Below, in pieces: positions 16,901-18,746 of a stretch of 64,000 nucleotides of DNA. The position numbers and the translations under genes are program-made. The notes under the pieces are model-generated. The model was given only the letters and a program-made list of their open reading frames with translations. It did no database searches and was not told where the DNA came from. Each line of letters begins with the position of its first letter. Within the stretch, counting starts at the first letter, position 1. Source of the stretch: Acidimicrobiia bacterium (GTDB lineage: Bacteria; Actinomycetota; Acidimicrobiia; IMCC26256; JACDBD01); contig JBPCMN010000085.1 in assembly GCA_051002235.1 (NCBI GenBank), positions 3,787 to 67,786 on the forward strand. The letters are read 5' to 3'.

Positions 16901-17410
16901 CGCAGCCTTGCCCTGGAGCAGGTCCTGGACCGTCTCGACCAGCAGCACGTCAGCGCCCCCCGCCAGCAGCCCCTCGACCATGGGCTCGTACGAGTCGCGC
17001 AGGTGGGCGAAGCGGATGTGGCCGAGCGACGGGAGCTTGGTGCCGGGGCCGATCGAGCCGATCACCCAGCGAGGCCGGTCGGCGGTCGCGTAGCCCGACG
17101 CCACCTCCTTGGCGATCCGCGCCGCGGCCTCGTTGAGCTCGAACGTCTTCTCCGGGATGCCGTATTCGGCGAGGACGACGGGGAACGAGCCGAACGTGGC
17201 GGTCTCGACCGCGTCGACGCCGACGTCGAAGAAGGAGGAGTGCATCTCGGCGATGAGATCGGGCCGCGTGAGCACCACGTGCTCGTTGCAGCCCTCGAGC
17301 TCCGGACCGCCGAAGTCGTCGGCAGTCAGGTCCTTGTCCTGGACCCAGGTGCCGAACGCGCCGTCGAAGACCAGGACGCGCTCACGGAGGGCCTCGAGGA
17401 AGCCGGGCAT
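13943..17410 (-). CDS. metH: Cobalamin-dependent methionine synthase
   Basis: DGAFGT, GLNCATG, PNAGLP, GGCCG, VGERTNANGSK, GTVKGDVHDIGKN, SGLL, RYSWGYPACPD. Confidence 0.97.
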   Translation of the reverse strand: MPGFLEALRERVLVFDGAFGTWVQDKDLTADDFGGPELEGCNEHVVLTRPDLIAEMHSSFFDVGVDAVETATFGSFPVVLAEYGIPEKTFELNEAAARIAKEVASGYATADRPRWVIGSIGPGTKLPSLGHIRFAHLRDSYEPMVEGLLAGGADVLLVETVQDLLQGKAALVACRRAMAKAGREVPVMVQVTMETTGRMLIGSEIGAALTALEALHPDVIGLNCATGPGEMTEHLRYLSQHARTFLSCLPNAGLPSVVGGKTHYDLTPEELTEAHNRFTSEFGINIVGGCCGTTPEHLRQVVERLGERAPLERTPEHEPGCSSIYSHVPFDQDVSYLAVGERTNANGSKKFRDAMLEEDWDACVLMARDQVKEGAHILDVCVDYVGRDGTADMDEIAGRFATQAALPLVFDSTEPQVVEAGLQHSGGKAILNSANLEDGEAEGSRLDRVFSLARDYGAAVICLAIDEEGQARDADWKLRVCRRIYDLGTEKYGLDPTDLIFDMLTFPLGSGQEELRRDGIETMEAIRRVKSELPGAHTILGLSNVSFGLKPAIRHVLNSVFLHECRQAGLDAAIVHAARILPLNKIDERAREVALDLVYDRRRDDYDPLTELMALFEGVEADSVEKEDRSGWPVEERLKHRIIDGDREGLQADLDDQLQTREALSIINDVLLDGMKVVGDLFGAGEMQLPFVLQSAETMKAAVAHLEPHMEKVEGGGKGRLVIGTVKGDVHDIGKNLVDIILTNNGYEVHNLGIKVPLHDFVEKATEVEADVIGMSGLLVKSTLIMRENLQELNDQGLERIPVMLGGAALTRTYVERDLREVYNGRLFYGKDAFEGLSTMDALMVGLRDDSLDPEFGTTPVGRDLPTRKSQREAEAAAVEVPARSDVATDVKVFQPPFLDKRVAKGISLDEIAGYLNETALFRNQWQFRPDKTKTENDEEFKARIRPILRDELEKAKAEGWLVPAVSWGYFPVNSEGDDLIVWADDDRRTERLSFSFPRQKKDRFLCISDFFRSVESGDPDYAGFHVVTIGEQASERERALFAADKYQEYLLCHGLSVEMTEALAELWHLRIRQEWGFADEDGPTLTGLFRQQYRGSRYSWGYPACPDLDDQAKLDELLDLSSIGVKLTEEFQLEPEQSTSAIIVPHPEAKYFIA

Positions 17411-17417
17411 CGCCCTA

Positions 17418-17423
17418 ACGTTA
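17418..17423 (-). promoter_or_regulatory. -10 element (TAACGT) of metH, leaderless spacing
   Basis: CCGG-TAACGT-N7-ATG on the minus strand. Confidence 0.6.
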
Positions 17424-17461
17424 CCGGGCGTTGCGGCACCGCCGGTGAAGGAATTGGGGCC

Positions 17462-18448
17462 CTACCGGGTGCACTCGAAGTGCCAGTACGGCGGGCCGTC
17501 GGAGAAGCGGACGCGGGAGAAGCTCCGCTCGAGACTGCGGATCTCGGCGCGCGTGAAGCGTTGCTCGTTCGACGTGAAGAACCGGTCGTAGACCCGCTGA
17601 CGAATGCCCTCCATCGACCGGCCGGCGTTGTCGTCGGCCAGCGGGATGAAGCGGGAGAGGCCGAAGAACCGGGCGACGCGCCCGATCCCGATGAGCGGGA
17701 GGTAGACGCCGTAGGCGATGACGTACGAGATCGCCCGTCGGACCCGCTCGTCACGCAATCGGGCTGTCCGCTCGCGTACCGCGTCGACGATCCGCAGCAG
17801 TGCCCGGTAGTGGGCCGGTCGGTTGTCCAGTGCGTAATAGAGGTAGATGAGGAGCCGGGGAGCCAGCCGGCGCATCGAACGGATCGCATCGAGCGGGTCC
17901 GTCGGGAGGGTGTGCAGCACGCCCAGGCACATGGCGAAGTCGCAGCAGTCGTCGGCAAACGGGAGGTTGGTCACGTCGCCCATCACGAAGATCGTGCTCG
18001 GCGCGTCGCGGAAGTTGCGCCGGGCGAGGAAGATCGCCTCGGAGAAGTCCACCAGGACGAGCTCCCGGCACGAATCGGCCAGGAAGGCGCTCCACCTCCC
18101 CATGCCGCAGCCCAGGTCGCAGATCACCGCGTCGGTCAGAGATGAGCGATCGACGAGGTCGAAGTACTGCTCGAACTCCGAGCGATCGTCGGTCAGGACC
18201 CGGTCGAACTCACGCCATTCCCGGCCGAAGCTCTCCTGGATGTCGTAAGCGAACCCGTCGACGCTCCGCCGAGTGGCCGCGAGGCGTGCCGGCCGACGGT
18301 CCTCGGGCAGCGTCACGATGACGTCGTCCACGATCGGGTAGAAGGCGGGGCCCACGCGTAGTGTGCCGGGCTCCAGGTCGATATCGTCGGTGCCGAACAG
18401 GCGTGCAAGCGACGGCAGCTTGTCCGCGTAGTAGCTCTGGTTCTCCAA
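17462..18448 (-). CDS. Class I SAM methyltransferase with Trm112-like N-terminal segment
   Basis: FYPIVDDVIV, ESFGREW, DLGCGMGRW, VDFSEAI, GDVTNLPF, CLGVLH, YDRFF. Probable native start TTG 18448 (TACTCT-N9-TTG); the frame stays open to GTG 18637. Confidence 0.85.
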   Translation of the reverse strand: MENQSYYADKLPSLARLFGTDDIDLEPGTLRVGPAFYPIVDDVIVTLPEDRRPARLAATRRSVDGFAYDIQESFGREWREFDRVLTDDRSEFEQYFDLVDRSSLTDAVICDLGCGMGRWSAFLADSCRELVLVDFSEAIFLARRNFRDAPSTIFVMGDVTNLPFADDCCDFAMCLGVLHTLPTDPLDAIRSMRRLAPRLLIYLYYALDNRPAHYRALLRIVDAVRERTARLRDERVRRAISYVIAYGVYLPLIGIGRVARFFGLSRFIPLADDNAGRSMEGIRQRVYDRFFTSNEQRFTRAEIRSLERSFSRVRFSDGPPYWHFECTR

Positions 18449-18526
18449 GGCCCGGCGAGAGTAGACGAGTGGGCCGCGAACCACCGAGGCGGAGGGAGAG
18501 GCAGGGGGATGACGCTCGTCGGTGAC

Positions 18527-18637
18527 AGGCCCGCCGAAGTCGTCGACGCTCAGGTCCTTGTCCTGGACCCAGGTCCCGAACGCCCCGTCGAAGACCAGCA
18601 CCCGCTCGCGTAGCGCTTCGAGGAAATGGTCGGCCAC
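18527..18637 (-). pseudogene. metH: Relic 5' fragment of a diverged metH (37 codons) with its own -10 (TAGCCT, 18644-18649)
   Basis: FLEALRERVLVFDGAFGTWVQDKDLSVDDFGGP is 31/33 aa identical to the MetH N-terminus; 18531-18625 vs 17307-17401 match at 84/95 nt (counted by hand). Confidence 0.9.
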
Positions 18638-18746
18638 GCACAAAGGCTACCGGCCGTCGGAGCGAGGCGATTCCCGAAAACACGCGGAGGGCGTTCGGCG
18701 GACCCCTCCACTATGGTCACGGAGCCGCGGTCGTCGCGGCTCACGG

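Follow-up and report, generated by a model that had tools for sequence, protein, structure and literature searches.

The 64,000-nt stretch of contig JBPCMN010000085.1 analysed here (hereafter the window, to whose coordinates all positions refer) belongs to a 2.6-Mb, 89-contig metagenome-assembled genome of an Acidimicrobiia bacterium (G000), and carries on its reverse strand an intact metH gene, a methyltransferase gene just upstream of it and, ahead of the latter, an orphan second copy of the metH 5' end with its upstream region (Table 1). The intact metH is complete, as stated in a first reading of the sequence (the original prediction), its 1155-aa product scoring 1340 bits against TIGR02082 with 5/5 Pfam domains present. 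The orphan copy at 18531-18625 aligns without gaps to metH 17307-17401, with 84/95 nt identical, eight of the 11 differences synonymous and 31/33 amino acids conserved, values already given in the original prediction and all valid within its 95-nt frame. A within-genome BLASTN comparison returned a match of 128 nt (E = 1.2e-30) that contains one 3-nt indel and reaches ~30 nt upstream of the start codon, and the total duplicated stretch, from promoter through codon 36, corresponds to 18527-18667 (-), ~140 bases. A full second metH paralogue, which the original prediction had mentioned as a possible source of the fragment, was searched for throughout the 2.6-Mb genome and not found, the only hit besides the full gene being the match to residues 1-38.

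The layout around the fragment was also as previously described. TAGCCT is followed by 6 nt and a GTG (18637-18635), and the frame opened by this GTG, or by the TTG at 18643, stays open to the methyltransferase stop at 17462. Counted from TTG 18643, the open reading frame (ORF) has 393 codons (17462-18643) and ends 51 nt upstream of the metH ATG; its opening 37-39 codons are the copy of the metH start and its last 328 codons the methyltransferase, which has a start of its own composed of TACTCT, 9 nt and TTG (18448-18446). Both arrangements, TAGCCT-N6-GTG and TACTCT-N9-TTG, resemble what we take to be leaderless actinobacterial starts. Homology to metH ends at codon 36/37 (18527), after which non-metH sequence leads into the methyltransferase, two unrelated sequences being joined inside a gene without any repeat or att site. 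No tRNA, integrase or insertion sequence features were present among the gene calls of the island delimited by metH and a conserved HAD hydrolase gene, and an Rfam scan of window 12000-24000 gave no match at E <= 1, so the duplicated segment contains no known riboswitch or leader.

A junction of this kind in an 89-contig metagenome-assembled genome might be an artefact, either a chimera of co-occurring strains, as the original prediction had itself envisaged, or a collapsed repeat, but the chance of this appears negligible. The same DNA was recovered in five other assemblies (ENA and Logan contigs from at least three projects and two assemblers), collinear and at 99.84-100% identity, and since every one of them has the junction, this is not a one-off chimera. 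Two of the five contigs are strain variants, with 11 and 21 single-nucleotide polymorphisms (SNPs), and an identical 391-aa product is encoded in all six assemblies. Moreover, the longest exact run common to both metH copies is 25 nt, under the k-mer sizes of the assemblers, and the junction between the fragment and the linker that follows it sits outside any repeat.

The two metH copies differ at 13 nt over codons 4-36, with 0, 2 and 11 differences at codon positions 1, 2 and 3, respectively (p = 2e-4 for 11 or more of 13 at third positions if they were spread evenly). Synonymous differences affect ten codons, and the two non-synonymous changes are adjacent (T29S and A30V) and fall on freely variable metH positions, 'SV' being natural in several metH proteins. 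The Nei-Gojobori estimates for the fragment against the intact copy were 0.71 for synonymous (dS) and 0.027 for non-synonymous divergence (dN), with dN/dS = 0.038; whole-metH dS is 0.25 between this genome and its sister species (G001) and 0.42 between it and a third species (L048), the value of the fragment being ~3x that of the sister species. Because the differences concentrate at third positions and dN/dS is low, the fragment appears to have been part of a functional metH, in agreement with the earlier view of two functional alleles rather than a fresh duplication, and the pattern indicates that for almost the whole time since the copies separated, a time longer than that since the split between G000 and G001, it evolved inside a working metH.

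The position of the two copies relative to other species was also different. At the third positions of codons 7 and 29 the intact copy and G001 have a derived base in common, and at the same two sites the fragment retains the base of most or all outgroups. Over 99 nt the fragment differs from G001 at 14 positions and the intact copy at 4, with ~7/99 expected for this comparison, so that the fragment shows about twice the expected divergence. The intact metH is 93.2% identical to that of G001 at the nucleotide level, evenly along the whole gene, and sliding-window identity against G001, L048 and G004 revealed no mosaic step; the homologous crossover inside metH that had been proposed therefore found no support in the comparison with G001, the lack of a mosaic signal being an outcome that the original prediction had itself named as refuting. 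This level is in line with the backbone: the neighbouring DprE1, DprE2 and UbiA are 87-88% identical to their G001 counterparts (DprE1 87%, UbiA 88%) and another highly conserved gene 94%, and in more distant pairs metH lies ~5-12 points above DprE1, DprE2 and UbiA. The intact metH thus looks vertically inherited and the fragment foreign, judging from a dS of 0.71, a dN/dS of 0.04 and the absence from the fragment of the derived states of G000 and G001, all of them read over 99 nt only.

Some peculiarities of metH were also observed in related genomes. The gene of G001 is split across the ends of two contigs (C76:2-547 and C111:24614-27658; L039 and L038) with a perfect 125-nt overlap at codons ~141-182, an assembly break inside a single-copy conserved gene that could reflect strain heterogeneity or recombination at this point. 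Among relatives of the family, two separate matches to the metH N-terminus were found in each of G014 (C81:4583-4693 and C162:2618-2719) and G040 (C36 and C116); in G040 both lie in full-length frames, maybe two metH genes, and one of the G014 frames reaches just 594 aa. Further metH fragments or paralogues may exist in the family.

Inspected homologues of the methyltransferase are 320-345 aa long, with a start M..YYADK that aligns to TTG 18448, and among the 120 best-scoring homologues listed, mostly of 315-365 aa, no other has this N-terminal extension, although a few longer ones were not examined. The native TTG is most likely where the enzyme starts, the in-frame fusion with the metH stump is probably fortuitous, and the 391-aa gene call is probably mis-started, its first 63-65 residues representing the metH stump and the linker. 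The closest homologues (77% and 73% at the amino acid level; L033 and L034) are encoded 24-37 nt behind an orthologue of the window Bac_transf gene, in L034 with a 458-aa gene convergent after the methyltransferase, and the more distant ones still adjoin a ~440-aa protein. The window lacks the methyltransferase at this place, and Bac_transf (23750-25186) and the 458-aa gene converge directly. The family is nearly always found, convergent or co-directional, beside a Pfam-less protein of ~440-460 aa (window 22305-23681; L034, L049, L050), the two being probably functional partners, and the rearrangement described here separated the methyltransferase from its 458-aa partner by 5 kb.

In a start-codon-anchored alignment to L033, L034 and the window's own Bac_transf tail, linker positions from about 18449 to 18494 align with a Bac_transf 3' end (...LRLGG, stop lost) followed by its native spacer. 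The alignment is positionally convincing for the last ~55 nt, with local scores only ~3 standard deviations (sd) above shuffles. The linker tail GGTGGT(T)CGC is closer to the tail of L033 than to GGCGGCCTC, the tail of the functional Bac_transf of the window, which suggests the contribution of two lineages, and the opening ~25 nt after the window Bac_transf stop still resemble the spacer. It is hence probable that the methyltransferase retains a remnant of a Bac_transf 3' end with its spacer, and, if the linker homology holds, both the metH 5' end and the Bac_transf 3' end are present twice. The methyltransferase does not behave as the newcomer it had been taken for, given that its closest relatives keep it directly behind the Bac_transf of the cluster and that it has apparently kept a remnant of this gene. 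A source for 18495-18526, the 32-39-nt filler part of the linker, was sought genome-wide with chance matches only, and metagenome contigs scanned for the exact linker/start junction, as expected in a strain without block B (see below), gave no match.

Upstream of the start codons, the motif CCGGTAGCCT is conserved 7-9 nt before metH in G001, G004, G006 and L052, with a TACCCT variant in L048. Likewise, (c)ctccggTAGCCT stands 7-9 nt before the metH start in four further lineages and 6 nt before that of the orphan fragment (18644-18653); loci where it or its variant was seen upstream of metH are L025, L026, L027, L048 and L052. This conservation suggests a leaderless or near-leaderless promoter. 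The intact metH has CCGGTAACGT in place of the motif, with TAACGT 7 nt before its ATG, and its upstream region is homologous to that of the fragment only in the last ~30 nt (about 20/30). A scan of 17200-19000 for sigma-70 and terminator consensus sequences found nothing.

Divergent from the fragment lies a DUF2142 gene, which heads an operon composed of DUF2142, a second methyltransferase, a GT4 glycosyltransferase and the 458-aa protein (block B), whose gene order is kept in L054. A full metH with DUF2142-family genes as its immediate divergent neighbours occurs in L052 and L053. In L052, which derives from another Acidimicrobiia lineage, they are two tandem paralogues (4103-6962; 475 and 474 aa). 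Judged by these arrangements, the fragment and DUF2142, together with the sequence between them, appear to form a single native unit. The region between the fragment and DUF2142 shares little alignable sequence with that of L052 besides CCGGTAGCCT. Related-locus searches, in metagenome contigs for DUF2142 and in genome contigs for the methyltransferase, confirmed no relatives. In the two strain variants (L028, L030), SNPs were several-fold denser in block B (20233-22793) than in metH, and none fell in the fragment, linker or methyltransferase.

The gene content upstream of metH in related species, whose comparison the original prediction had called for, turned out to be a variable region of glycan genes. 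The gap between the HAD gene and metH differs in length and gene content from species to species: it is ~55 nt long in G004, 1.9 kb in G006, where it holds an amidase-like gene, and 3.4 kb in L048, where an epimerase and an amidase gene are found together with one unknown gene. It reaches 8.5 kb in the present genome and 13.7 kb in G001, whose cargo begins with rml-type genes. The region downstream of metH is also glycan-rich and different between the compared species. Neither flank of metH is common to G000, G001 and L048, and synteny is limited to the ubiA-dprE1-dprE2-HAD operon further upstream. The site between this decaprenyl-phospho-arabinose (DPA) operon and metH, a polysaccharide locus whose glycan genes differ among related genomes between conserved flanks, appears to be an exchange hot spot. 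metH itself is conserved but isolated, flanked on either side by glycan genes that are specific to each lineage (window 11453-13953 and 17411-25908; L025, L038, L048), and a GT2 glycosyltransferase gene (13228-13953, +) converges with it, overlapping its 3' end by 11 nt.

Table 1. Features of the metH locus and of the adjacent island, in window coordinates.
Feature	Position	Strand	Basis
Intact metH, cobalamin-dependent methionine synthase, 1155 aa	13943..17410	-	TIGR02082 and Pfam
Spacer between metH and methyltransferase, 51 nt, with atypical -10-like TAACGT at 17423-17418	17411..17461	-	Sequence reading
Class I S-adenosylmethionine (SAM)-dependent methyltransferase, native ORF, 328 aa from TTG 18448	17462..18448	-	Methyltransf_11/25
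Linker, 78 nt, containing TACTCT (18463-18458)	18449..18526	-	Start-codon-anchored alignment
Orphan metH fragment, GTG start and 36 codons (MADHFLEALRERVLVFDGAFGTWVQDKDLSVDDFGGP)	18527..18637	-	In frame with linker and methyltransferase
Putative promoter region of the fragment, motif CCGGTAGCCT, -10-like TAGCCT (18649-18644)	18638..18667	-	Motif comparison
DUF2142 (GT-C-like) membrane protein gene, alternative start 18837	18747..20138	+	PF09913 match
Second methyltransferase of block B	20162-21103	+	Gene order also in L054
GT4 glycosyltransferase of block B	21116-22300	+	
458-aa protein of block B, no Pfam match	22305-23681	+	
Bac_transf, initiating sugar-phosphate transferase	23750..25186	-	PF02397 match
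TylF-type O-methyltransferase, outermost island gene	25192..25908	+	PF05711, E = 3e-47
HAD hydrolase, last gene of the ubiA-dprE1-dprE2-HAD operon	25905..26560	-	Conserved left border of the variable site

Taken together, the fragment is very probably the scar of an illegitimate recombination between lineages. A functional metH of a related but different lineage, X, would have supplied it, contributing its promoter, its start codon and codons 1-36, and the DUF2142 glycan operon, the native neighbour on the divergent side, would still be attached. The 8.5 kb separating HAD from metH would then be chimeric, built from two related polysaccharide cassettes that both had a Bac_transf and both abutted metH, which would be the reason why the metH 5' end and, probably, the Bac_transf 3' end are doubled. 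Cassette X would run from Bac_transf through block B to the metH promoter and codon 36 of the donor gene, and the resident cassette Y would contain the Bac_transf tail and spacer with the methyltransferase, followed by the vertically inherited metH. DNA of lineage X would most likely have entered by a homologous anchor on the left, located in Bac_transf or further left in the HAD/DPA operon, while its right end, stopping just inside the donor metH, would have been joined without homology at a point ~1.1 kb upstream of the resident metH, in the resident Bac_transf tail or immediately ahead of it. Most of cassette Y would thereby have been replaced, the methyltransferase stranded and metH left untouched, a route corresponding overall to homology-facilitated illegitimate recombination (HFIR). 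For this full account, in which X came in and the resident metH descended vertically, our confidence is lower than for the scar itself, and we favour it on balance. What the sequences show directly is the duplication, its recurrence in independent assemblies, the signature of selection, the placement of the fragment among related metH genes and the gene orders; the direction of transfer, the site of the anchor and any expression are deduced from them.

Several points weigh against this reconstruction. All the arguments from sequence evolution are based on just 99-140 nt, and the direction of transfer on 14 vs. 4 differences to one sister genome together with two informative sites. The donor lineage X is hypothetical, the N-terminus of the fragment being absent from the genome and metagenome proteins searched; a search of 5.8 billion proteins for the donor allele, with a chimeric query made of the fragment N-terminus and the metH body, recovered no MADHFLEAL...SV N-terminus. 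Base composition, GC content at third codon positions (GC3), C3/G3 and codon usage of the island are the same as in the rest of the window. Finally, the homology of the linker to the Bac_transf tail is just moderately above chance (~3 sd), the exact junction base and any microhomology are not placeable, and 18495-18526 is of uncertain origin.

The same two doubled pieces would be accounted for, symmetrically, by the mirror image of these events, in which the fragment is the resident allele and the incoming DNA consists of the Bac_transf tail, methyltransferase, promoter and metH, with an illegitimate joint at codon ~37 and a homologous crossover in or beyond metH, so that the acquired methyltransferase ends behind the old promoter. 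The presence of the canonical conserved promoter on the fragment and of the atypical TAACGT on the intact gene fits such a course, as does the variability of both metH flanks between species, which makes metH a plausible anchor. However, metH shows no mosaic step against G001, the intact copy stands at the identity to G001 of a vertical gene and the fragment at 14/99 vs. ~7, the derived states common to the intact copy and G001 are absent from the fragment, and the crossover would be needed beyond the metH 3' end, where the compared lineages have no shared homology. We consider this direction unlikely, albeit the strongest of the alternatives. It is close to the capture event put forward in the original prediction, of which the class of mechanism and the illegitimate joint at codon 36/37 stand, while the entry of methyltransferase plus metH, the crossover in metH and the resident status of the fragment are not supported: the intact metH fits vertical identity to G001, and the fragment is the outlier. 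An origin without any donor, by in-situ tandem duplication of a segment bounded by the Bac_transf tail and metH codon 36, with the methyltransferase, block B and the promoter between them, followed by loss of the methyltransferase from copy 1 and of block B from copy 2, reproduces the exact present gene order and both boundary duplications, and its starting order (Bac_transf, methyltransferase, convergent 458-aa gene) is seen in L034. It is nevertheless highly improbable, as it requires three events, and a dead copy should decay at all codon positions, in contrast to the 11/13 third-position differences and the dN/dS of 0.04; the dS of 0.71 exceeds the divergence between G000 and G001, yet G001 shows no trace of the structure. 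Duplication within the species' own lineage is further disfavoured because the fragment does not have the derived states of the G000 and G001 lineage.

The amino acid conservation of the fragment could also be explained without a foreign origin, if the 36 metH residues and/or the promoter had been kept by selection to drive or regulate the methyltransferase, e.g., by methionine/SAM co-regulation. In favour of this, a leaderless-type start opens an uninterrupted in-frame ORF, the promoter motif has stayed intact, and the six assemblies encode the same protein. All assemblies represent one population, though, so this identity is uninformative on selection, 29 GC-rich codons would remain in frame and free of stops by chance in about 1 case in 5 (an estimate), and no homologue inspected has such an extension. 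To our knowledge, 36 residues of a TIM-barrel N-terminus have no independent function, and only a slight probability can be assigned to a selected fusion. Under the preferred reading of an inter-lineage scar, the captured metH promoter may simply add transcription to the methyltransferase. A bolder view would have metH of this Acidimicrobiia genus, with its conserved leaderless promoter, as a standing recombination anchor between two rapidly exchanged surface-glycan regions, its 5' end recycled by imprecise exchanges as an expression head for cassette genes and the captured promoter driving a SAM-consuming methyltransferase, possibly as the 391-aa fusion. We regard it as doubtful; if true, glycan methylation would be tied to the control of methionine/SAM regeneration.

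The closest known process is HFIR as described in transformable bacteria, in which foreign DNA recombines through a homologous anchor at one end, and the joint at the other is made without homology (de Vries and Wackernagel, 2002; Prudhomme et al., 2002; Meier and Wackernagel, 2003, cited in PMC5361080). In the account given there, as at the present locus, integrase, att site and mobile-element gene are not involved, and truncated gene pieces lie at the illegitimate junction (PMC5361080), the difference being that here the process is read from sequence alone. Orphan fragments generated by cassette displacement, such as those of Rhs and contact-dependent inhibition (CDI) toxin tips and of the effector-immunity arrays of the Vibrio cholerae type VI secretion system (T6SS), are also described as remnants left beside a conserved gene, as here (PMC5361080). 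In contrast to those systems, the cargo consists of polysaccharide-biosynthesis genes rather than toxin/immunity pairs, and the stranded piece is the 5' end of a housekeeping gene with its promoter, with one visible event rather than an array. The stump of a neighbouring gene with its promoter before an unrelated gene likewise recalls promoter capture by partial gene duplication, promoter use being conjectural in our case.

Surface-polysaccharide loci are exchanged between conserved genes in the O-antigen clusters located between galF and gnd and in the pneumococcal cps between dexB and aliA. As in these loci, from what is generally known of them, content differs here among close species, with a chimeric cluster derived from recombination of related cassettes; the flanks here are instead the ubiA-dprE1-dprE2-HAD operon and metH, with glycan genes also on the other side of metH, and exchange at O-antigen and cps loci is usually clean and homologous, without the flank fragments seen here. 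The locus shows polysaccharide clusters of an uncultured actinobacterial lineage that were rebuilt without mobile-element machinery, with a scar that records the cassette origin of each piece. It is therefore a new example of a known, ordinary type of integrase-free recombination scar and not a new kind of system.

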